Part shown: one piece after another, positions 488 to 18,022 of the stretch | Numbering within the stretch: position 1 is the stretch's first letter | Layout: each line of letters opens with the position of its first letter | NCBI GenBank assembly: GCA_048938895.1 | Contig: JBHLLU010000051.1 | Coordinates: 1-20,930 of the forward strand | Reading direction: 5' to 3' | DNA: 20,930 nt | Origin: Promethearchaeota archaeon | GTDB taxonomy: Archaea > Asgardarchaeota > Lokiarchaeia > Sigyniarchaeales > SOKP01 | The notes under the pieces: model-generated | Told to the model about the DNA's origin: nothing | What the model saw: only the letters and a program-made list of their open reading frames with translations | The model's database searches: none | Translations under genes and position numbers: made by a program

Positions 488-1996
488 GTGAAATGGATTG
501 GAAAACATATAATTATGGATTTCTATTATCCATTTATAGTCGTAATAATTTTCTTGTTTGTTACACCTGTGGTGGCTGCACTTTTCATTACAGTTTCTCC
601 CTATTGGTTTTATACTTTTTTAATTCTCTTTTGTTTTTTTGTTAGTCTTGTTATTCATCAGACATTTCAAATAAAGCAGCATAAGATTGAAAACATCGGA
701 ACTTTAAACGAAAATGGGTGGCGAGAATTTGAATTTGATAATCCAAACCCAAAGAGAGAGGTTAAATATAGAATTGGTTTCATAGGAGACATCATGAAAA
801 TGAATGGTTATGAACTAAAGTTTGAGAAAAGAATTCAAAAATTTTTTGGTGATGTCAATCTCATAATCGGCAATTTAGAAGGAATAATTTTAACTGAAAA
901 ATACTTAAATGATAATAATTTAACTGAAAAAGGCATCACTAAGAAAGGAGGTCTTGCTTCTCAAAAACATAAAGAAGCCATATTAAAACAATTAAAAGGA
1001 ATGGTATCAACGAATAACAAAACGGAGACAAAATGGCTCTTATGTGTGAGTAATAATCACAGCGCAGATTTTGGTGATGAGGTATTTAAATCTTCACGAG
1101 ATCATATTAATAAAGATAATGATTTTTATGCTTTTGGGGATTTAGATTTAAAACACTCTTCTTTTCCATGGGATGACTCCCAAGGTATGAAAGAACTTAA
1201 TATTGTGGCAGGAAGTATGTGGACTAATAAGAAGTGTGGAAATTTAATTACTCGTTTCAAAAGTGAGACCACCAATGATCTTTATAAACCCGAAAAATTT
1301 AATATTTACTTTCCTCATTGGCACTATGAAAATGAATCTTATGTTCGATCTAAACTTCAACGCAAATCCATATATTTCTTCCTTAAAGGTGAATATAAAG
1401 AAAGGAATTGGAATATAATTTACAACATATTAGAGATCTTTAAAACGAAAATAGATCGCGGATGGTTTCAAAGAAAAATGAAATTTTTATATAGAAACAA
1501 ACCAGATGAGAAACAAAAAATTAGGCAAAAATGGAATTTAATATTTGGACAACACTCTCATGTTCCACAGCCTATAAAAGATTATGGAGAGGGAATAATA
1601 TGTTATTCTGGGGGTAATTTCACCTCTTCAGAAAGGAGAAAGAAGCATATTAGCGGTCTAATTATGAAGTGTGAGATATGTAAATCAAATAATCCTGATA
1701 AAGTTGAACTAGGGAAAGTTCATTGGTGTTATACTCGAAATGAAAGAAAAAAGAAACAAAAAGAAGTTTCTGTAGTCATAGATTGTTTACGTACTAGGAA
1801 AAAATACTTTGAAAGGCGTTCTATTAAATTTAGGACAAGTTTAATTATTTTCAGTATAGCATTGGGAATTTGGCTTGGTATGTTTTGGGAGCTTGGTACG
1901 ATTAATCCTTTATATTGGTTAATATATTCGATATTAATTATAGCTCTAATCGTTTATTTTGGAGTAAAATATTCCAAATTTACATCAAAAATATGA
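488..1996 (+). CDS. CapA/PGA_cap-like metallophosphoesterase family membrane protein
   Basis: Motifs in the expected order: GDIM, NLEG, SNNHSADFG, HWHYE, GQHSHV, YSGGNF. Two hydrophobic helices at each terminus. Start is GTG 488 or the in-frame ATG 515. Confidence 0.85.
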   Translation: MKWIGKHIIMDFYYPFIVVIIFLFVTPVVAALFITVSPYWFYTFLILFCFFVSLVIHQTFQIKQHKIENIGTLNENGWREFEFDNPNPKREVKYRIGFIGDIMKMNGYELKFEKRIQKFFGDVNLIIGNLEGIILTEKYLNDNNLTEKGITKKGGLASQKHKEAILKQLKGMVSTNNKTETKWLLCVSNNHSADFGDEVFKSSRDHINKDNDFYAFGDLDLKHSSFPWDDSQGMKELNIVAGSMWTNKKCGNLITRFKSETTNDLYKPEKFNIYFPHWHYENESYVRSKLQRKSIYFFLKGEYKERNWNIIYNILEIFKTKIDRGWFQRKMKFLYRNKPDEKQKIRQKWNLIFGQHSHVPQPIKDYGEGIICYSGGNFTSSERRKKHISGLIMKCEICKSNNPDKVELGKVHWCYTRNERKKKQKEVSVVIDCLRTRKKYFERRSIKFRTSLIIFSIALGIWLGMFWELGTINPLYWLIYSILIIALIVYFGVKYSKFTSKI

Positions 1997-2131: not shown

Positions 2132-2341
2132 CTAGAAGTATTTAATTGCTAGTAGGATATCGTCTCTAGTCACTTTCTTTCTTTTTGCATGTTTGGTTAA
2201 GGTTAATGCAGTTTTTGTAATTTTTTCAGCAGATTGACCCATCCAATCTACTAGTTCATCAACTGCATCACGTGCTACGATAATGGCCCCGTTGTGTTTC
2301 ATTAATCTTCGAATAGGACTCCAACTAATATATTCAGACAT
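2132..2341 (-). CDS. Archaeal histone (HMf/HMt-type histone fold), 69 aa, tail-less
   Basis: PIRRLMK...A..V..DA...L...AE.I...A...TKHAKRKKVTRDDI.LA histone-fold pattern. ATG 2341 is preferred over GTG 2356 because GGAGG lies just upstream of it. Confidence 0.93.
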   Translation of the reverse strand: MSEYISWSPIRRLMKHNGAIIVARDAVDELVDWMGQSAEKITKTALTLTKHAKRKKVTRDDILLAIKYF

Positions 2342-2435
2342 TTTATATTCCTCCACTTTTTTATAATTTATTGATAAGTTTTATTGATTTTTGTTATTAT
2401 TTCAGAGTTTATTATATAGATATTGATCTTTTAGA

Positions 2436-2443
2436 TATTTAAA
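2436..2443 (-). promoter_or_regulatory. Candidate TATA box for the histone gene
   Basis: The minus strand reads caaaatc-TTTAAATA about 95 nt upstream of the ATG. The AT-rich background makes this a weak call. Confidence 0.35.
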
Positions 2444-2853
2444 GATTTTGAAATGTGCTTGATTTATTTGAGAAAAAAATAACAAAAGTCTGACGACAAA
2501 ATTCGGAATTATAGAGATGATCAATCTCGTGCAAGTTTGATGGACAGTGCATTTTCGTTAAAATTTAATAAATTTTAATATAATTATTTACTCATATTCA
2601 CCCAAATAAAGTGATATGACGAAATTTTTAGTAAAATCAAAATTTAGATCAAATTCTGAAAAGATGAATTAGTGATTTTTATCACGATTAAGAGATCATA
2701 AAATTACAAAAAATGACTGTCTTTTTGATGAATACGCAAAATCCGTAATAGATAAAGATTACTAGGTAATTTAATTATAAGTTATTACATTTTAGAATTC
2801 AGTAAACAAAAAAAATGTCTTATTGGTCAATTTAATGGAATTTAATATCAGTT

Positions 2854-3840
2854 TTACCAAACTATCTGTTCATAATTACACTTATTGCATGAAATTTCTT
2901 CACCTTTATTAGGGAATCTAGAGAGAATGGCACCACAATACTTACATTCTAAATCATAAATTCGATCAGAAGAGGGAACAAGCTCTCTTCTGAGAATATG
3001 CTCTTTTAACTCGTTTGAAAGTGAAGTTAAAAGTGAGATGAGGAGATGATGGTTTTTTGAAGTAGCGATTATTTCTATTTTTTCTGATACTATTTGGCCA
3101 ATTACTAAAACATCGTCTCTTGATTCTAAATCCGCCCCAAAATACCAGAGAACTCTTCTATTTACATCTTTTGCTATCAGTTGTAGATGGTTTCTTAAAA
3201 AAACCTGTTCTAAAATATTGAAATATAGACCGGGTTCACTTAATCCTAAAACACCAACCCCTAAGCTTTTGATAGCCCTTTTCATACCGGGAATTTGAGA
3301 AAATTCTCTGATATAAGAGCTAGAAATTATTTTAGGTATAATAGTTATAATATCCAAGGATAATTTTATTGGATCAGAATTAATAGCTCTAACAAAATCT
3401 TTGTTATTAACATAGGTAAGAACAGTTCTTATTTCACCTTCCTCACCTAATGATACCGGGGTAAAATGTAAATTAATTTGTTTTGAACTCCGTTCGTTCA
3501 ATTCATCAAATTCAATATTGATTTTTGATAATCCATCTTCTTCAAAAGGTTCAGGTATATATATAGTTGGAGGATAGCTTCTAGTTATGCTAAAGAATAA
3601 GGGGAAACTAAGTTTTACTTTTACATCAGAGATTGGGGCTAAACTTTCATTTAGTAGTTGGATTGAAAGTACATAATGTCCTCCATAGGGGTAAAAATCG
3701 TTTAAAATTTTGATCCTATCTTCCTGATCAATTGTTTCAAATGTAAATTTATCAGCCTTAGTAATTTTCGCTGCACCCTTATTTCCAAAAATAACAAGAT
3801 CTTGGGTTGGTTTGGAATCCTTTTGTTTTTTTCCAGGCAT
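2854..3840 (-). CDS. Hypothetical protein: Ig-like beta-sandwich + alpha/beta platform (adaptin-appendage-like) + C-terminal Zn ribbon; paralogue of 4054-5043
   Basis: 328-aa ORF with a beta-strand-rich N-terminal half (YVLSIQLLNES...ISDVKVKLSFP) and C-terminal CKYC-x15-CNKC. Shares PKIIS..IRE.SQIPGMKR..SLG.G and Y.LEC..CG...FP..GE.I.C.KC..EQ..W with the neighbour. The fold assignment is inference. Confidence 0.8.
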   Translation of the reverse strand: MPGKKQKDSKPTQDLVIFGNKGAAKITKADKFTFETIDQEDRIKILNDFYPYGGHYVLSIQLLNESLAPISDVKVKLSFPLFFSITRSYPPTIYIPEPFEEDGLSKINIEFDELNERSSKQINLHFTPVSLGEEGEIRTVLTYVNNKDFVRAINSDPIKLSLDIITIIPKIISSSYIREFSQIPGMKRAIKSLGVGVLGLSEPGLYFNILEQVFLRNHLQLIAKDVNRRVLWYFGADLESRDDVLVIGQIVSEKIEIIATSKNHHLLISLLTSLSNELKEHILRRELVPSSDRIYDLECKYCGAILSRFPNKGEEISCNKCNYEQIVW

Positions 3841-4053
3841 TTTGATTGAAAGAAGATTAGACTAGGTGATTGAATTCCTATATTTGTGATAGATAATAAT
3901 ACGACAAATTGATTTATATTTTTTAATAATTTTATATATAATTTTCTATAAAGAGTTTTGGTCAAAAGAAGTACTCCAGTGGGATTTAAGCAGCGATTAT
4001 TTAAAACTAGAAGAAAATATGTTAAAGAGATAAATATTTTTTACATTATAATC

Positions 4054-5043
4054 TTACCAGATGAATTGTTCATGAGAACATTTAATGCATGTTATAGATT
4101 CACCTACTTTTGGAAAATATGGTAAACTTTCTCCACAATTATCACATTCCAATTCATAAATAATTGTGCTTGGCTTAATGAGTTTTTTTTTAAAAAGTAA
4201 TGTCCTAATCTTATTGTTTAATGAACAAAGAAATTGACATAGTATAATGAAATTTGTTGAATATGCTATTATCTCAATGGTATTTAAACCAATTTTACTG
4301 AGGGCTAATATATCATGGTTAGAGTTTGACTCAGAGCCATAAATCCAAGAAATTCCTTTCTCCTTATCTTTTGTGATAAATTGGAAATTATATGATACAA
4401 AAATCTCTTCAATGGTTTCAAATATTTTTTTTGAATTTAATTTTTTAGTTGTTCCAATTCCTAAGCTTATTAGAGTTCTCTTCATACCTGGTATTTGAGA
4501 AATTTCTCTTATTCGTAGATGAGATATTATTTTTGGCATTATTTTCAAATCCTCAATCTGGATCTTTATAGATTGAGATTTAATCTCGTTTTCTTTCCCA
4601 TTATGGTTATTATATTTTAAAATAGATACAAACTCCCCACTACCTAATTTTCCTGAGGATTTGAAATGAAAATAAAGCTTTTCTGAACTTTTACCCTTTA
4701 AAATTTTGAGTTCCAAATTTATAATATTTGATTTTTCTTGATTATCTTTACTTGAAGAGGTAATTTTTAATGTTTGAGGATAAGATTCTATGAATTCTAA
4801 GATAATTGGAGTAAAGAATGTAATGTTAAGATCAGAAATAGATTCAGACTTTTCGTTCCTTATGATTATTGAATACCTAAAGTACATTCCTTGAGGAGTT
4901 AAGCTATTTGTAACTGTTATTTTATCTTCTTTGTTCGTTTTACTGACTAAGTATTTGTCAGTTTTTATCTTACCCGGTCTTTCCGTATGTTTAAAAATTG
5001 TAAGACCTTGGATATCTGGTTGAGAGCTCCTTTTTTTAGCCAT
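4054..5043 (-). CDS. Hypothetical protein: adaptin-appendage-like + C-terminal Zn ribbon; paralogue of 2854-3840
   Basis: 329-aa ORF, collinear with 2854-3840 over its full length; CDNC-x15-CIKC and a terminal Trp. Confidence 0.8.
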   Translation of the reverse strand: MAKKRSSQPDIQGLTIFKHTERPGKIKTDKYLVSKTNKEDKITVTNSLTPQGMYFRYSIIIRNEKSESISDLNITFFTPIILEFIESYPQTLKITSSSKDNQEKSNIINLELKILKGKSSEKLYFHFKSSGKLGSGEFVSILKYNNHNGKENEIKSQSIKIQIEDLKIMPKIISHLRIREISQIPGMKRTLISLGIGTTKKLNSKKIFETIEEIFVSYNFQFITKDKEKGISWIYGSESNSNHDILALSKIGLNTIEIIAYSTNFIILCQFLCSLNNKIRTLLFKKKLIKPSTIIYELECDNCGESLPYFPKVGESITCIKCSHEQFIW

Positions 5044-5160
5044 TTTTAAATAAGATATATTAAATCATATATTTAAATTAAGACATATGAATAGAATCAG
5101 TATAAAAATTTATTGCGAATTTTTTGAATTAATTTTTTTACAAGAATTACTTATTAAATA

Positions 5161-5844
5161 TTGAAAATTGTAATGTTTGAAGAATTAGATTCACTATTGG
5201 ATTCCCCAACAATAAGACCAACCTTTGAAAAGGTTCATATAATTTTAGCTTTATTTATATTTGCAGAAAATGAAGATGGAATTGGTAGATATAGACTTCA
5301 AAAGGAATTATTGATTGGTGAAGGAACTGCTAAATCTTTAATTAAAAAACTAAATGATGATGTCAGTTTCATAATGGTATCTAATGAAATGAAACGAAGG
5401 GGGCATATCTTAACAGAAAAAGGTCAAGAATATTTAAATAAAATCATAAAATATATCCCCATTATTAAAAAATGTGAATCTTCACTTCTTAAGGAAATTA
5501 TTATTGATGCTGAAGGGAGTTATACCTACTTTGCTCTGATAAGAAATGGTTTTCATAAGATTACGAATGGGTTAAACCAAAGAGATGCAGCTATTAAAGT
5601 TAATGGTTCTGGAGCAACCTGTTTAGTATACAATGGTAAAGATTTAATTTTTCCATCCAAAAACCAAAACATGAATATCAGCAAAAATATGATTATCAAT
5701 AAGAATCTCTATAAGTATTTTGAATCAAGATTATCAAAGGAGCATATTCAATTAGATAAGAATGATGTAATTGCTATTGGTTCAGGAGATAGCCCTCAAA
5801 AAGCAAGGATCGCAACTTTAAATGCTGCGTTAACCCTTATATAA
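5161..5844 (+). CDS. DUF4443/DUF2111-like archaeal protein with N-terminal winged HTH
   Basis: GIGRYRLQKELLIGEGTAKSLIKKL...GHILTEKG (CggR-like wHTH) followed by GLNQRDAAIKVNGSGATCL. The true start may be ATG 5173. Confidence 0.75.
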   Translation: MKIVMFEELDSLLDSPTIRPTFEKVHIILALFIFAENEDGIGRYRLQKELLIGEGTAKSLIKKLNDDVSFIMVSNEMKRRGHILTEKGQEYLNKIIKYIPIIKKCESSLLKEIIIDAEGSYTYFALIRNGFHKITNGLNQRDAAIKVNGSGATCLVYNGKDLIFPSKNQNMNISKNMIINKNLYKYFESRLSKEHIQLDKNDVIAIGSGDSPQKARIATLNAALTLI

Positions 5845-5864
5845 TTATTTAACTAAAAAAGATC

Positions 5865-6356
5865 ATGAAATTTGAAAAAGATATAAATCTAATTTTGACT
5901 CACAGTATTGTTGCTGATTTACGAGAGTGTAATAGAAGGGCTTCCCCAATTGAAGCCTGTGGACTTATATTTGGTGATGTAAAGAAAATTGAAAAAAATA
6001 AGGAGGAGTACCAAATACATTATGTAGCTAGAGCATTCTATTGTTTAAAATCGAATATCGAATCATATGGTTCTTTTGCTTTAATTGAGGATTCTGAAAA
6101 ATATTTTGAAATCCATCAAGACGCAGTGATTAATAAAGGTTTAAGAATGATAAGTATCTTTCACTCTCATCCCGTCATCGCATATCCAAGTTCAATCGAT
6201 GAAAATAATATGAAATATCTTGATAAAAATATCGGTAATCTAAGAAACCCCTTTAAAAATCAGATTTGGACTATAATGGATATGAATACTGAAGAACTCA
6301 ATAGTTTTATATATTTTAATGATGAGCTATTACAAATTGAATTGCAAATAAGGTAG
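5865..6356 (+). CDS. JAB1/MPN/Mov34 (JAMM/MPN+) metalloprotease
   Basis: N-terminal EACGLIFG catalytic Glu and FHSHPVIAYPSSID Zn-binding motif. Confidence 0.9.
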   Translation: MKFEKDINLILTHSIVADLRECNRRASPIEACGLIFGDVKKIEKNKEEYQIHYVARAFYCLKSNIESYGSFALIEDSEKYFEIHQDAVINKGLRMISIFHSHPVIAYPSSIDENNMKYLDKNIGNLRNPFKNQIWTIMDMNTEELNSFIYFNDELLQIELQIR

Positions 6357-6375
6357 AATTAATTATAAAAATAGA

Positions 6376-7017
6376 CTATTCAAGCTGTTTAAAACCAGAT
6401 TTATCAATTTGGCAAATTTGCAAAGCAAATCCTGATCCTGCATCTCTTTCTCGTGAACTTGTAATCGCTGTTTTTATTAAATCTATTCCTTCAGTTTTTG
6501 TCATGTCTGGTCTCCAGTCTGCTTCTAAAACACCTAATGAGAAGGGTGATCCCGAGCCATAGGAGAGGAATTCAGTTTCATCAAATAGGGTTCCTAATAA
6601 ATCAATCCCAAAAAGCTTACCAGATTGCTCTTTTTCTGAATAACCACCTATGATCATCATGGAAAGGAAAAAAGATCGCCCAGAAAAAAGAATATTTCGA
6701 CATAGGCTAGCAATATATTTTGGTTCAGGGACACTGCCCTCTTCGACTTCTTTTAAACGGGATAATGCTCGTAGCTGACTAACAATGTACTGACAATCCG
6801 CCACACCACCACTGATTGTCGCCGCTGTGAATGTATTAATCTCAAATAATTTTTGAGCTTGCTTTGATGCAACAAAAGTACCCCCTGTTGCTTGTGATTC
6901 TGTTCCAATCACAACAGCATCTTTTACAATTATACCTACAGTTGTTGTTCCGGTTAATAGAGCCTTTTCAAGTGCTTTTTCATCGTATTTATGCTTATTC
7001 ATATTTTCTTTCATCAT
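6376..7017 (-). CDS. psmB: 20S proteasome beta subunit with propeptide
   Basis: G|TTTVG autocleavage site. Thr1, Glu17 and Lys33 are in register; GSG and RDAGSG motifs are present. Confidence 0.96.
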   Translation of the reverse strand: MMKENMNKHKYDEKALEKALLTGTTTVGIIVKDAVVIGTESQATGGTFVASKQAQKLFEINTFTAATISGGVADCQYIVSQLRALSRLKEVEEGSVPEPKYIASLCRNILFSGRSFFLSMMIIGGYSEKEQSGKLFGIDLLGTLFDETEFLSYGSGSPFSLGVLEADWRPDMTKTEGIDLIKTAITSSRERDAGSGFALQICQIDKSGFKQLE

Positions 7018-14665: not shown

Positions 14666-14769
14666 GGGAGGGTGGTCTAGCTTGGTATGATACTCGGCTG
14701 GGGGCCGAGGCATCATTTAAGTTCTAAGTGATGAGGTATTGGTCGGGGGTTCAATTCCCCCCTCTCCCA
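14666..14769 (+). tRNA. tRNA-Pro(GGG) with a 30-nt insert (probable intron, about 14710-14739) between anticodon stem and variable loop; CCA not encoded
   Basis: Acceptor GGGAGGG/CTCTCCC + A; D arm GTCTAGCTTGGTATGAT; anticodon arm CTCGG-CTGGGGG-CCGAG (anticodon 14700-14702); T arm GGGGG-TTCAATT-CCCCC. Confidence 0.92.
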
Positions 14770-14800: not shown

Positions 14801-16351
14801 TTAATCGTAATAGAATCGTGATCTTCGGTTTTGATATCGCTCAAGGTAATCATCTTCCTCAAGTTCTTGGATTTTCTCGGAATAATCTTTTGTATACCAA
14901 TTAATTTCGTTTTGGAAGAACATCCTTTCCCGTAAGAGATCATAATGAGTTTTTCCTATTGATGCTTTACAATTAGGACAACATTTTTCCTCTTTATTAA
15001 AATGATTCCCACATGCAAAACATATTAGGCGATCATATTCGTCGTAATAAAATTTTTTAGTGAGGTTAGCAATTTCTTCTGATTTTATTTTATCTTGCGA
15101 TAATAAGTCCATTCTAGTTATGAATTGATCTTTCAATCTGATCTTCCTAAGGATAATAGAAACTGCCACAGAAATTCTATTTAGTATCTCTTCAATAGCT
15201 ACTTTGTTTTGGTCTTGAAAATCCTCAATTTGAAATATATATGTCTTTACTTTTTCCAGTATTTTATCTTTGTCATGATAACTAATTAAAGTTTCAGGTT
15301 TTAGAATATCTGATAGGAAAGTTATTATTTTATCTATAATCCCAACTTTAATTCCAGAATCCATCATTTCATCTCTTAATTTGCCTAAAAATTTTTTCTT
15401 CAAATAATGTTTAAATTTGATAATAATAGCATCACTTTGTTGTTGATCTGAACAAATTTCTATGACTTCTCCTCTTGGAGTTGAATATGTAAATCCAAAA
15501 CCTTCTGGTCCTAGACCTCCGCGAAGTACCATTGAAAGACTATAGAATTTATAATTATTCTTCATCAAAATATCATCTTTATATTTAATCACATTTTCCG
15601 GATAAACATCATGTATAATTTCACGAGACTGACCATTTTCAAAGTAAATTCTGCCATAGGTAATATAGATATCTTTCTTATTTTGATTAAAATTTTTAAT
15701 AGGGGTGTAGTTCTTCTCAATTTGTGCTATGAAATTAGTTACAGAACCCAAATTTCTGGCGACTAAACCATACATTGAATAATACTCGTCCAACCACCTT
15801 TTCAAGCCATCTGGATAAATTCGTCTTAAATAAAGATCGTATGGCATTATTTTGCAAACATAATAAATTAAAGAATCTGGAGCGCTCCCAAACAAATCTT
15901 TTAGATTAGAAATAAGAAGCTTATCATTCTTTTTAATCTCTTCGATAACTTTGATATGATCCTTTGTAAATTCTCTCTCAAATAAGTTGTATTTAGTGAA
16001 ATGACGAATTATTTCAAAAATTCTACCGGTTAATCCTCTTTGCATACCTTCCAAATGTAAATACGCTAGAATTTTAAACCTATAGGGAATATTTTTAACT
16101 TTAATGAAAAATCCAAGTTTATCAGAATAGTTGAATAATTGCTCAAAAAGTTCAAATTCCATTTGGAATAGTAAATAGGATAATGCTAAGTAATAACATT
16201 TTTCTTTGTCATCTTTTATCTTTTCATAGTCTAATGAATCAGATAACTCTGATAAAAGCTCTATATTAATTCTAGCAACATATCTTCCAAACATAGATAA
16301 ATTTCCTGTTCTAATTGTTTTAAGGAGTAATTGTAAATTTTTTGAAGGCAT
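14801..16351 (-). CDS. Hypothetical protein, paralogue of 16520-18022, with inserted Zn ribbon
   Basis: 516-aa ORF sharing FYSLSMV..GGLGPEGFGFTYSTP.GE.IEICSDQ, LKDQFITRM and HYD.LRERMF.QN with the neighbour; has an extra CFAC-x9-CCPNC. Confidence 0.85.
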   Translation of the reverse strand: MPSKNLQLLLKTIRTGNLSMFGRYVARINIELLSELSDSLDYEKIKDDKEKCYYLALSYLLFQMEFELFEQLFNYSDKLGFFIKVKNIPYRFKILAYLHLEGMQRGLTGRIFEIIRHFTKYNLFEREFTKDHIKVIEEIKKNDKLLISNLKDLFGSAPDSLIYYVCKIMPYDLYLRRIYPDGLKRWLDEYYSMYGLVARNLGSVTNFIAQIEKNYTPIKNFNQNKKDIYITYGRIYFENGQSREIIHDVYPENVIKYKDDILMKNNYKFYSLSMVLRGGLGPEGFGFTYSTPRGEVIEICSDQQQSDAIIIKFKHYLKKKFLGKLRDEMMDSGIKVGIIDKIITFLSDILKPETLISYHDKDKILEKVKTYIFQIEDFQDQNKVAIEEILNRISVAVSIILRKIRLKDQFITRMDLLSQDKIKSEEIANLTKKFYYDEYDRLICFACGNHFNKEEKCCPNCKASIGKTHYDLLRERMFFQNEINWYTKDYSEKIQELEEDDYLERYQNRRSRFYYD

Positions 16352-16519: not shown

Positions 16520-18022
16520 TCACAAATAGTCAAAATCTAATCTTCTTTCTCTTGCATTAATCTCATCTGCAAGTTGTTGAATTTGTTCTTCAAGTTCAGC
16601 TATTTCTTCTGGATAGTTTTTGAAAAACCATTTAGGTTTGTTTTGGAGAAACATTCTTTCCCGTAAGACATCATAATGGGATTTTCCTCTTAAACTTGTG
16701 AGTTTTGCCACATCTTCAGATTTTAATTTTCCTTGAGCTACTAATTCCATTCTTGTTATGAATTGGTCTTTAAGTTTAATCCTTTTTAATATTATTGAAA
16801 TGGCAAATGAAACTTTTTCCATGATTACTTCAATCTTAGATTGCCGAAGTTCATCTATTCGACTTAAGAACTCTCTAATTTTTCTTAATACCGAATTTTT
16901 ATTATAATAATTAATATAATCTTTAGGATTTATAACATCTGATAGAAATTTGATTATTTTATCTCTGATGTCTCGGTTTATGCCTAAGTTAGTCATTTCT
17001 TTTTCAAGTTTATTTAAAAACTTTCTCATTAAGAACTGTTTGAATTTTATGACAATTGCTTCAGTTTCTCTTTGATCTGAACATATTTCGATTATTTCTC
17101 CTTTAGGCGTAGAGTAAGTAAATCCAAAACCTTCTGGGCCTAATCCCCCAATAACTACCATTGAAAGGCTATAGAAATTATAATTAGTTTTATCCAAGAT
17201 CTTTTCTTTATTTTTTATTATATTTTGTGGATATACAAGATGTTTTTCTTGATATATACGTAAAATATTGTTTCTATTAGGACTATAAAAATAACGTGGA
17301 TTAAATTCTAAAAATATAAAGTCATCATTTAAATTGCCTAATTTTTGTTTAGCTTCAACTTTTTCTATGAAATCCTCTACACTTCCTAAGTTTCGAACAA
17401 CTAAATCATAAATCACATATCCATCGGTCCAATTTCTTAAAGAATTTGGGCTCATTAGAAATCCTTGAGGATTATTCATCCTTTCCTTTATCCATTTAAC
17501 ATAGTCATAGGGCATTACTTTACAGACATAAAAAATTAATGAATCTGAGACTGTCCCAAATAAATCTTTTAAGTTAACAGCAAGCAGTTTATCTTTTCTT
17601 TTTATATCTTGTATTATTTTTATTTGATCTATGGTAAAATTTCTCTCAAATAAGTTGTATTTATTAAAAAACTTAACAAGTTCAACGATTCTACCTCGGA
17701 GTCCTTTATTAAGTCCATCTATATGTAATTCACTGATGATTCCTTCAATATCAATATTTGAAACATCAAAAAAAATGCCCAATTTATCAGAATAATTAAT
17801 AAGCTGAGCAACATCCTCTTTCCCCTTGATAAAGTTTTCTTTCATGGATATAAGGCGTGTTGATATTGCTTCGTAATAAGCTTTTTCGAGATTTACCCTG
17901 AATTTATCGTAATTTTTCGAATGTATAAGATTAGTTGGGAATTGATCGACTATCTTTTCAAACTTAGGAATGTCGCCTGATTTTAATGCCTTTATAAGCG
18001 ATAAAAATTGTGTCGAGAGCAT
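16520..18022 (-). CDS. Hypothetical protein, paralogue of 14801-16351
   Basis: 500-aa, predicted mostly helical ORF, collinear with the neighbour; no family recognised. Confidence 0.85.
   Translation of the reverse strand: MLSTQFLSLIKALKSGDIPKFEKIVDQFPTNLIHSKNYDKFRVNLEKAYYEAISTRLISMKENFIKGKEDVAQLINYSDKLGIFFDVSNIDIEGIISELHIDGLNKGLRGRIVELVKFFNKYNLFERNFTIDQIKIIQDIKRKDKLLAVNLKDLFGTVSDSLIFYVCKVMPYDYVKWIKERMNNPQGFLMSPNSLRNWTDGYVIYDLVVRNLGSVEDFIEKVEAKQKLGNLNDDFIFLEFNPRYFYSPNRNNILRIYQEKHLVYPQNIIKNKEKILDKTNYNFYSLSMVVIGGLGPEGFGFTYSTPKGEIIEICSDQRETEAIVIKFKQFLMRKFLNKLEKEMTNLGINRDIRDKIIKFLSDVINPKDYINYYNKNSVLRKIREFLSRIDELRQSKIEVIMEKVSFAISIILKRIKLKDQFITRMELVAQGKLKSEDVAKLTSLRGKSHYDVLRERMFLQNKPKWFFKNYPEEIAELEEQIQQLADEINARERRLDFDYL

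Follow-up and report, generated by a model that had tools for sequence, protein, structure and literature searches.

A duplicated family of putative ear-like zinc-ribbon proteins next to a JAMM protease gene in a Lokiarchaeia-type archaeon

In eukaryotic vesicle coats, the adaptor ears serve as hubs of interaction, and the origin of these ears is part of the eukaryogenesis question. The DNA analysed here, called the window in its whole length of 20,930 nucleotides, is from a Promethearchaeota archaeon (Asgardarchaeota; Lokiarchaeia; Sigyniarchaeales; assembly GCA_048938895.1, contig JBHLLU010000051.1). It carries two adjacent genes, coding for the proteins P0001 and P0002. A sequence-only reading had taken them for stand-alone adaptin- or coatomer-appendage-like proteins fused to a zinc ribbon, and for an undescribed membrane-coat or cargo-adaptor module. 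This raises the question of how much of an ear these proteins contain, where they come from, and what kind of process they may serve. Our answer is that they belong to a family of one Asgard order that has probably kept both halves of an ear, appears to have lost an ancestral PCI domain, and has been duplicated into an acidic/neutral and a basic form. We tentatively assign this family to protein turnover and not to vesicle coating.

The gene pair itself is secure. Both open reading frames (ORFs) are collinear and start with ATG. The proteins align end to end with 115 of 328 residues identical (35%; E 7e-66; five gap positions), which bears out that they are paralogs of 328 and 329 residues. 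The stretch where the two genes meet is spanned by contigs from other public runs (X2 record 4, positions 3552-4806; X3 record 12, positions 3550-4241), among them one of 5.4 kb from a second study (X5 record 29), which is about 95% identical over 2315-6400. Thus, the pair is real DNA and not an assembly artefact. The genome to which the window belongs (4.65 Mb in 174 contigs; the window is on contig C90) has exactly these two copies of the ear gene. The four parts of the proteins are listed in Table 1. The Lys-rich tail (residues 1-35) has an isoelectric point (pI) of 9.8 in P0001 and 10.2 in P0002. This basic tail, the CxxC-x15-CxxC ribbon and the terminal Trp were confirmed in both proteins. 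Confirmed as well was the absence of a trunk or solenoid, as the 328/329-residue proteins match neither HEAT repeats nor Adaptin_N. No membrane segment is predicted in either protein (maximum 19-residue Kyte-Doolittle mean 1.16 for P0001 and 1.50 for P0002).

Two alignments served as profiles: A1, a narrow one with 73 family members, and A2, a wide one with 61 diverse relatives, each of which had been retrieved by A1. Among the 73 relatives in A1, the Pfam model Alpha_adaptinC2 (PF02883) matches 54 at E<=0.1, and the GAE model of PTHB1/BBS9 matches 14. The PF02883 matches are in a single register, with residues ~38-128 aligned to model positions 5-96. A scan of 400 genomes of the Asgard phylum with PF02883 returned 63 places in 56 genomes, of which 27 lie on the ear gene by their coordinates. 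The five best places are on this gene, including the sole one above the cut-off (a six-frame match), while none of 14 control genomes has a match at E<=0.01. On the basis of these in-register matches, which stay below the threshold for single proteins, and of the phylum-wide scan, part 1 is read as an Ig-like sandwich. Of the described families, the adaptin-ear sandwich is the closest, though the likeness never attains curated significance.

The assignment of the second globular part (part 2) depends on a longer protein from the same genome. In this protein of 789 residues (contig C85, locus L137:2589-4958, plus strand), the ear module comes after winged helices, DDRGK/UFL1-like ones and three of the PCI type, and is followed by a Vps28-C domain. 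When A2 is compared with its residues 389-693 (hhalign), the probability is 99.5% and the E-value 6e-23, over 300 columns that span PCI, part 1 and part 2. Vps28-C occupies the position that the ribbon has in P0001 and P0002. Part 2 probably corresponds to an ear's platform. A transitive link through the platform model B2-adapt-app_C was tried and rejected, as its three sub-threshold matches in the 400 genomes fall in an unrelated 910-residue ORF. This ORF (L056:323-3055, minus strand; G191 contig C24; 16.7 bits, sub-threshold) has an intein-splicing-like stretch, and hhalign shows no relationship between it and the ear family.

A1 has 18 invariant columns, among them the four Cys, W328, W232, G235, S192, G194, N64 and F18. 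The ligands C299, C302, C318 and C321, together with the terminal W328, are invariant in 73 of 73 members, and they form the two CxxC knuckles of a C4 ribbon. Its matches in Pfam and in the PDB are weak and of the eS27/TFIIB/LysW kind (also RPB9-type). The x15 spacing presumably sets the ribbon apart from an NZF finger. Eukaryotic appendages bind peptide motifs at two sites, a Trp site on the platform and a side site on the sandwich. W232 and G235 of part 2 are sequence-level candidates for an equivalent of such peptide sites.

Longer orthologs point to the origin of the family. In its own taxonomic family (f1), the protein is short. The orthologs from families f2 to f4 have 327-463 residues, and the f3 forms tested begin with a PCI domain. 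This domain scores 30.4 and 27.4 bits in the long orthologs from loci L038 and L049 (cut-off 22) and is weaker in closed genomes. The N-terminal extension of the long forms also gives weak profile matches to Rpn6, CSN1, CSN4 and DDRGK1. One relative (P0153) carries the source name "PCI domain-containing protein", and another (P0207) combines TPR and PCI. A PCI domain was not found in P0001 or P0002. The tail of P0001 aligns directly after the PCI columns, from which we infer that family f1 lost the domain. Accordingly, the family is best described as derived by shortening from a longer PCI-ear-Zn-ribbon protein.

In more distant relatives, the module is C-terminal to TPR(+PCI), to DDRGK/UFL1-like helices, to GOLD, to NHL propellers, to NosD beta-helices, or to LanC-like or TIR domains. 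As it is found behind so many different domains, it appears to be portable. Adaptin_N is absent from all 73 longer relatives that were scanned (out of 124 library relatives). The same genome codes, on contig C140, for a 993-residue ORF (L135:1285-4266, plus strand) with Adaptin_N (53.9 bits, cut-off 37) and HEAT repeats. Its best sequence match in the PDB is the trunk of AP-3 delta (E 2.7e-4). Near the C-terminus, it has weak matches to PCI (18.3 bits) and Alpha_adaptinC2 (15.2 bits). Compared with the ear-family profile by hhalign, it gives a weak match covering PCI and half of the sandwich (probability 28%, E 6e-4).

A word-indexed search returned 191 relatives, nearly all with 324-330 residues, and every named one is a hypothetical protein from an Asgard metagenome-assembled genome (MAG). 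When 1.84 billion representatives were searched exhaustively with a profile, only 124 reached E<=1e-3, and a feature search of the ESM Atlas with P0001 matched only its own clusters. Matches occur in 137 of the 400 phylum genomes, with 110 of 134 genomes positive in family f1, and 1 of 1, 12 of 14 and 3 of 4 in the other three families of the order. Only weak partial matches were obtained outside that order. The 58 loci collected from genome contigs are all MAG records, labelled Asgard or "uncultured archaeon". According to these searches, the family is restricted to one Lokiarchaeia-type Asgard order. Two relatives have a disrupted ear gene, which is split into two ORFs in one (L130:4965-5994) and has five stop codons in the other (G184:C3:17990-18970). 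Such broken copies fit a dispensable gene.

P0002-type proteins form 17 clusters, and in six NCBI MAGs their locus tags adjoin those of a P0001-type gene. A quick maximum-likelihood tree groups them, with SH-aLRT 100, in a single clade that has a long stem and falls within the short-form family; the placement of this clade relative to the P0001 clade is not settled by that tree. A full-length second copy is present in 11 of 54 genomes of the genus, the window's genome included. It is in tandem in five of these and on another contig in six. Five of the six unlinked copies were inspected, and all five are P0002-like, basic and away from the locus. Among the 58 species-level loci, tandem pairs occur in four, with the P2-type gene always next to the DUF4443 gene; one more locus has a split gene.

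The two types differ clearly in charge. All 15 P2-type proteins have a pI of 9.14-9.85, whereas the median pI is 6.2 for 30 P1-type proteins and 7.0 for 17 single-copy short forms. All six pairs from the same genome combine an acidic or neutral protein with a basic one. Eight of 12 type-specific switches fall within residues 34-157, which cover the end of the tail and the sandwich. Internal conservation is similar in both clades (0.70-0.80 for P2, 0.78-0.81 for P1). The equal conservation together with the clean charge split indicates that P0002 is a lineage-specific duplicate under purifying selection, which was maintained and subfunctionalised. As P0002 became basic and P0001 acidic, the two copies may have separate partners or form a pair; the matched charges fit a heterodimer and fit different partners equally well.

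In the window, histone, P0001 and P0002 are encoded on the minus strand. The PH0730-like/DUF4443 gene and the Prok-JAB gene are divergent, followed by genes for the proteasome beta subunit, S8e, HypA and SRP19 (Table 1). Of the 58 species-level loci, 56 have DUF4443 as divergent neighbour and 52 have JAB next to it, and every miss is at a contig end. The JAMM motif of the JAB orthologs is intact. The sequence-only reading had named conservation of the pair and of its synteny across Asgard genomes as a check. Within the order, the DUF4443/JAB neighbourhood is mostly kept, the tandem pair is not. In other genera and families, the link is rearranged: JAB is directly divergent from the ear gene in two loci (L038 and L049), DUF4443 and JAB are ~2 kb off in a third (L044), and in a fourth (L045) JAB and proteasome beta are ~2 kb from the ear, where no DUF4443 was found. 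In a closed genome from the same genus (G189), ear, DUF4443 and JAB are jointly absent, and psmB-S8e-HypA-SRP19 is retained in place. DUF4443 is commoner than the ear, being found in 292 of the 400 genomes (ear: 137). In these searches, 16 genomes of f1 lack both the ear and DUF4443, eight lack only the ear and two lack only DUF4443 (both at contig ends), a loss count that is too high because one genome (G149) turned out to hold a divergent DUF4443. The 434-residue ORF that replaces the ear beside DUF4443 in G149 was considered and has no relation to the ear. Between the divergent genes, no clear conserved operator was found, just AT-rich, TATA-like conservation. The literature search found no paper on DUF4443. 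The gene order argues for a JAMM/proteasome setting or for regulation by DUF4443, and argues against a coat or ESCRT (endosomal sorting complex required for transport) locus.

Table 1. Positions of the gene pair, its parts and its neighbours in the window
Feature	Positions	Strand
Archaeal histone, frequent downstream neighbour (context)	2132..2356	-
P1-type gene, P0001 (328 aa, 37.4 kDa, pI 6.1); main ortholog line, distal to the DUF4443 gene	2854..3840	-
P0001 residues ~291-328 and stop: C4 zinc ribbon (C299, C302, C318, C321), last residue W328	2854..2970	-
P0001 residues ~166-290: part 2, in which S192, G194, W232, G235 and L245 are invariant; putative platform fold	2971..3345	-
P0001 residues ~36-165: part 1, Ig-like sandwich resembling Alpha_adaptinC2/GAE below threshold (approximate borders)	3346..3735	-
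P0001 residues 1-35: Lys-rich tail, columns after the PCI winged helix of longer orthologs (borders approximate)	3736..3840	-
Spacer between the copies, 213 nt, AT-rich; candidate promoter room for the downstream copy	3841..4053	-
P2-type gene, P0002 (329 aa, 37.8 kDa, pI 9.4); basic paralog, likewise of four parts, on the side of the DUF4443 gene	4054..5043	-
Divergent intergenic region between the gene pair and the DUF4443-JAB operon, AT-rich and partly conserved	5044..5160	.
PH0730-like winged helix and DUF4443 protein, conserved divergent neighbour	5161..5844	+
Prok-JAB/JAMM metalloprotease; E30, H100, H102, S109, D112 invariant in 31 orthologs	5865..6356	+
Proteasome beta subunit, which comes next in the conserved block	6376..7017	-

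Three further observations concern other parts of the window. A second tandem pair of paralogs (14801-16351 and 16520-18022, both on the minus strand) codes for proteins of 516 and 500 residues, which are 45% identical (E 1e-135) and match no Pfam family. The longer copy has an insert of ~31 residues with a Cys-rich, zinc-ribbon-like motif, and both copies recur in a relative (L139). A 104-nt tRNA was found by Rfam (14666-14769, plus strand; 44.6 bits) and missed by ARAGORN; it probably contains an intron. A 502-residue ORF (488-1996, plus strand) has only a 30-residue match to PGA_cap and a weakly SLATT-like C-terminus.

What do the two proteins do? The reading that we put first, as a tentative preference, is that of a soluble, cytosolic interaction adaptor. 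The ear-like module would bind partner proteins or peptides. A terminal element would dock the protein to a machine, this element being the Zn ribbon here and Vps28-C in the paralogous family. The setting would probably be protein turnover linked to ubiquitin-like modifiers or to the proteasome, rather than vesicle coating. Turnover is the likeliest setting because the ancestral protein appears to have had a PCI domain and because the conserved neighbours are DUF4443, an intact JAMM isopeptidase and proteasome beta. The proposal of a membrane-coat or cargo-adaptor module was not upheld, as the proteins have no trunk and no membrane segment, and these conserved neighbours include neither trafficking nor ESCRT genes.

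Several observations weigh against an ear-like adaptor in protein turnover. With respect to the ear, P0001 and P0002 themselves match no Pfam ear model, and the best PF02883 score for single family proteins is 24.8 bits (cut-off 27.6). Among the 61 diverse relatives, PF02883 matches 26, and the generic Ig family DUF11 matches nine. The platform models PF09066 (B2-adapt-app_C), PF08752 (COP-gamma_platf) and PF02296 (Alpha_adaptin_C) have no match on the ear gene in any of the sets searched (the window's genome, the 400 genomes of the phylum and the 54 genomes); in the 54 genomes, PF08752 and PF02296 gave only scattered, chance-level matches elsewhere. Sequence and profile searches of the PDB likewise returned no match to part 2, only to the Zn ribbon and, for long forms, to PCI/DDRGK winged helices. 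A1 alone reaches the 789-residue protein with E 0.021 over 60 columns. As this match is weak and that of A2 is strong, the homology link is transitive through the long forms. The likeness to adaptin appendages proposed in the sequence-only reading is thereby supported in part for the sandwich; for the platform, which no platform model detects, there is the indirect link through the 789-residue protein.

With respect to the setting, the link to turnover comes from gene order in a single taxonomic order, and genomes can do without the ear. It is wholly absent from 24 of 134 f1 genomes, and in four f1 genomes the ear is gone while histone-DUF4443-JAB-psmB is kept. In three closed genomes (L039-L041, MK-D1-like), DUF4443 adjoins the long form without JAB or psmB, and a TFIIB-like gene and TatD are found instead. 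In 13 loci from other Asgard families, DUF4443 has neither JAB nor an ear beside it. Finally, PH0730-type proteins are listed as a winged-helix transcription-factor family (PMC6316755). The divergent pairing may thus mean regulation rather than a complex.

The alternative that survives best is an ESCRT-linked sorting adaptor resembling ESCRT-0, although we consider it unlikely. The ear would recruit cargo or partners, the ribbon would dock on a Vps28-C-type domain, and ear forms with a ribbon would cooperate with those carrying Vps28-C. Makarova et al. 2024 propose that Asgard ear proteins are functional analogues of ESCRT-0 and recall the contact between the yeast Vps36 zinc finger and Vps28-C. 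The window's genome codes for a homologous ear fused to Vps28-C, which sits exactly at the ribbon position in the 789-residue paralog, and also for a full Vps28 and for Snf7. However, the only Vps28 and Snf7 matches of the genome are on other contigs (C51, C85, C75), and none of the 22 scanned window ORFs matches an ESCRT family. Furthermore, the x15 spacing and the likeness to S27e/TFIIB/LysW-type ribbons are at variance with such a role, and one genome (G231) has an ORF of ~808 residues with a weak PF02883 match while no Zn-ribbon form was found in it.

It is rather improbable that there is no ear at all. In that case, an Ig domain of the generic E-set type would be joined to an alpha/beta domain with no relation to ears and to a zinc ribbon of the nucleic-acid type, and the proteins would act in chromatin, transcription or ribosome biology. 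This would account for ear matches that stay below threshold, for the silent platform models and for the DUF11 matches. The ribbon is most similar to ribosomal eS27 and to TFIIB/RPB9-type ribbons, one of the copies is strongly basic, a histone gene is a neighbour, and in family f3 a long TFIIB-like gene is nearby. The single register of the PF02883 matches and their concentration on the ear gene favour an ear-like sandwich.

An extension of the ear-like adaptor, more doubtful still, is tempting to consider. The acidic and the basic ear might form an obligate heterodimer, a free-standing hub with two ears. With the neighbouring JAMM isopeptidase and the ancestral PCI domain, this could represent a minimal receptor similar to the proteasome lid or the COP9 signalosome (CSN), which passes modified proteins to the proteasome. 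It would correspond to a prokaryotic stage with the ear in turnover, before its recruitment to coats. As most genomes are single-copy, a heterodimer is not general. The least probable proposal is a proto-coat or cargo-adaptor pair, with the paralogs heterodimerising at membranes like the paired large subunits of AP or COPI: the sandwich signal, the charge split in all six pairs (which fits an electrostatically matched heterodimer), a basic tail that may contact acidic lipids and the 993-residue Adaptin_N/HEAT protein agree with it, but trunk, membrane segment and trafficking neighbours are missing, second copies are scarce and often unlinked, and eukaryotic large subunits are known to pair via their trunks rather than their ears.

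The family shows the ear module standing alone in Lokiarchaeia-type archaea, with a predicted PCI-bearing ancestor and in the company of JAMM and the proteasome rather than of membrane machinery. If this context reflects function, the first job of the ear would have been protein turnover or sorting, not coats. The acidic/basic duplicate is a small, expressible pair for asking whether ear paralogs pair up.

Compared with the appendages of AP alpha/beta/gamma and of COPI beta/gamma, and with the GAE domains of GGA and BBS9, the window's family shares the in-register, sub-threshold PF02883 and PTHB1_GAE matches in part 1 and a two-part layout of similar size. It differs in having no HEAT trunk or hinge, in a platform that is undetectable by sequence, and in its C-terminal Zn ribbon. 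A second comparison is with the PCI subunits of the proteasome lid, the COP9 signalosome and eIF3, which are partners of MPN/JAMM proteins. Like these, the long orthologs have a PCI winged helix that scores above the cut-off, with which they start. The relative P0207 combines TPR and PCI as lid subunits do, and an intact JAMM protein and proteasome beta are neighbours. In contrast, the window's proteins lost PCI; in lid subunits PCI is C-terminal to the solenoid, and no ear follows.

Eme et al. 2023 (Nature 618:992) report that Asgard genomes contain the Pfam domains "Alpha adaptin, C-terminal domain" and "Beta2-adaptin appendage", detached from a trunk. The window's family provides the best PF02883 scores in the 400 Asgard genomes. 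In contrast to those unfused domains, the 993-residue ORF may have a trunk-plus-ear-like layout within one Asgard protein. The closest precedent is Makarova et al. 2024 (mBio 15:e00335-24), who describe archaeal "adaptin appendage region" proteins, among them Meth_adaptin with a Zn ribbon and multidomain Asgard forms with Vps28-C, longin and HTH/PCI. No description of a stand-alone Lokiarchaeial ear-Zn-ribbon family with PCI ancestry, a JAMM/DUF4443 neighbourhood and an acidic/basic pair was found in the main texts of the literature, supplementary tables being outside the search; recent Asgard preprints, in the text accessible, name adaptin only in passing.

With the set of Makarova et al. 2024, the window's family shares the order of its two globular parts, the Ig-like one coming first, and Zn-ribbon and PCI companions occur in both. 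There is also profile homology to the 789-residue PCI-ear-Vps28-C protein, which was assigned to the published family by its matching architecture, and the GOLD-fused relative P0220 was retrieved by the ear-family profile. The window's family differs in that it is stand-alone, without Vps28-C, steadiness box, longin or GOLD and without an ESCRT locus, and in that it is limited to one Lokiarchaeia-type order, in which it was duplicated into an acidic/basic pair. The system is therefore not undescribed: archaeal ears of this kind, including Zn-ribbon fusions, have already been reported, and the window's family adds detail to a catalogued domain family.

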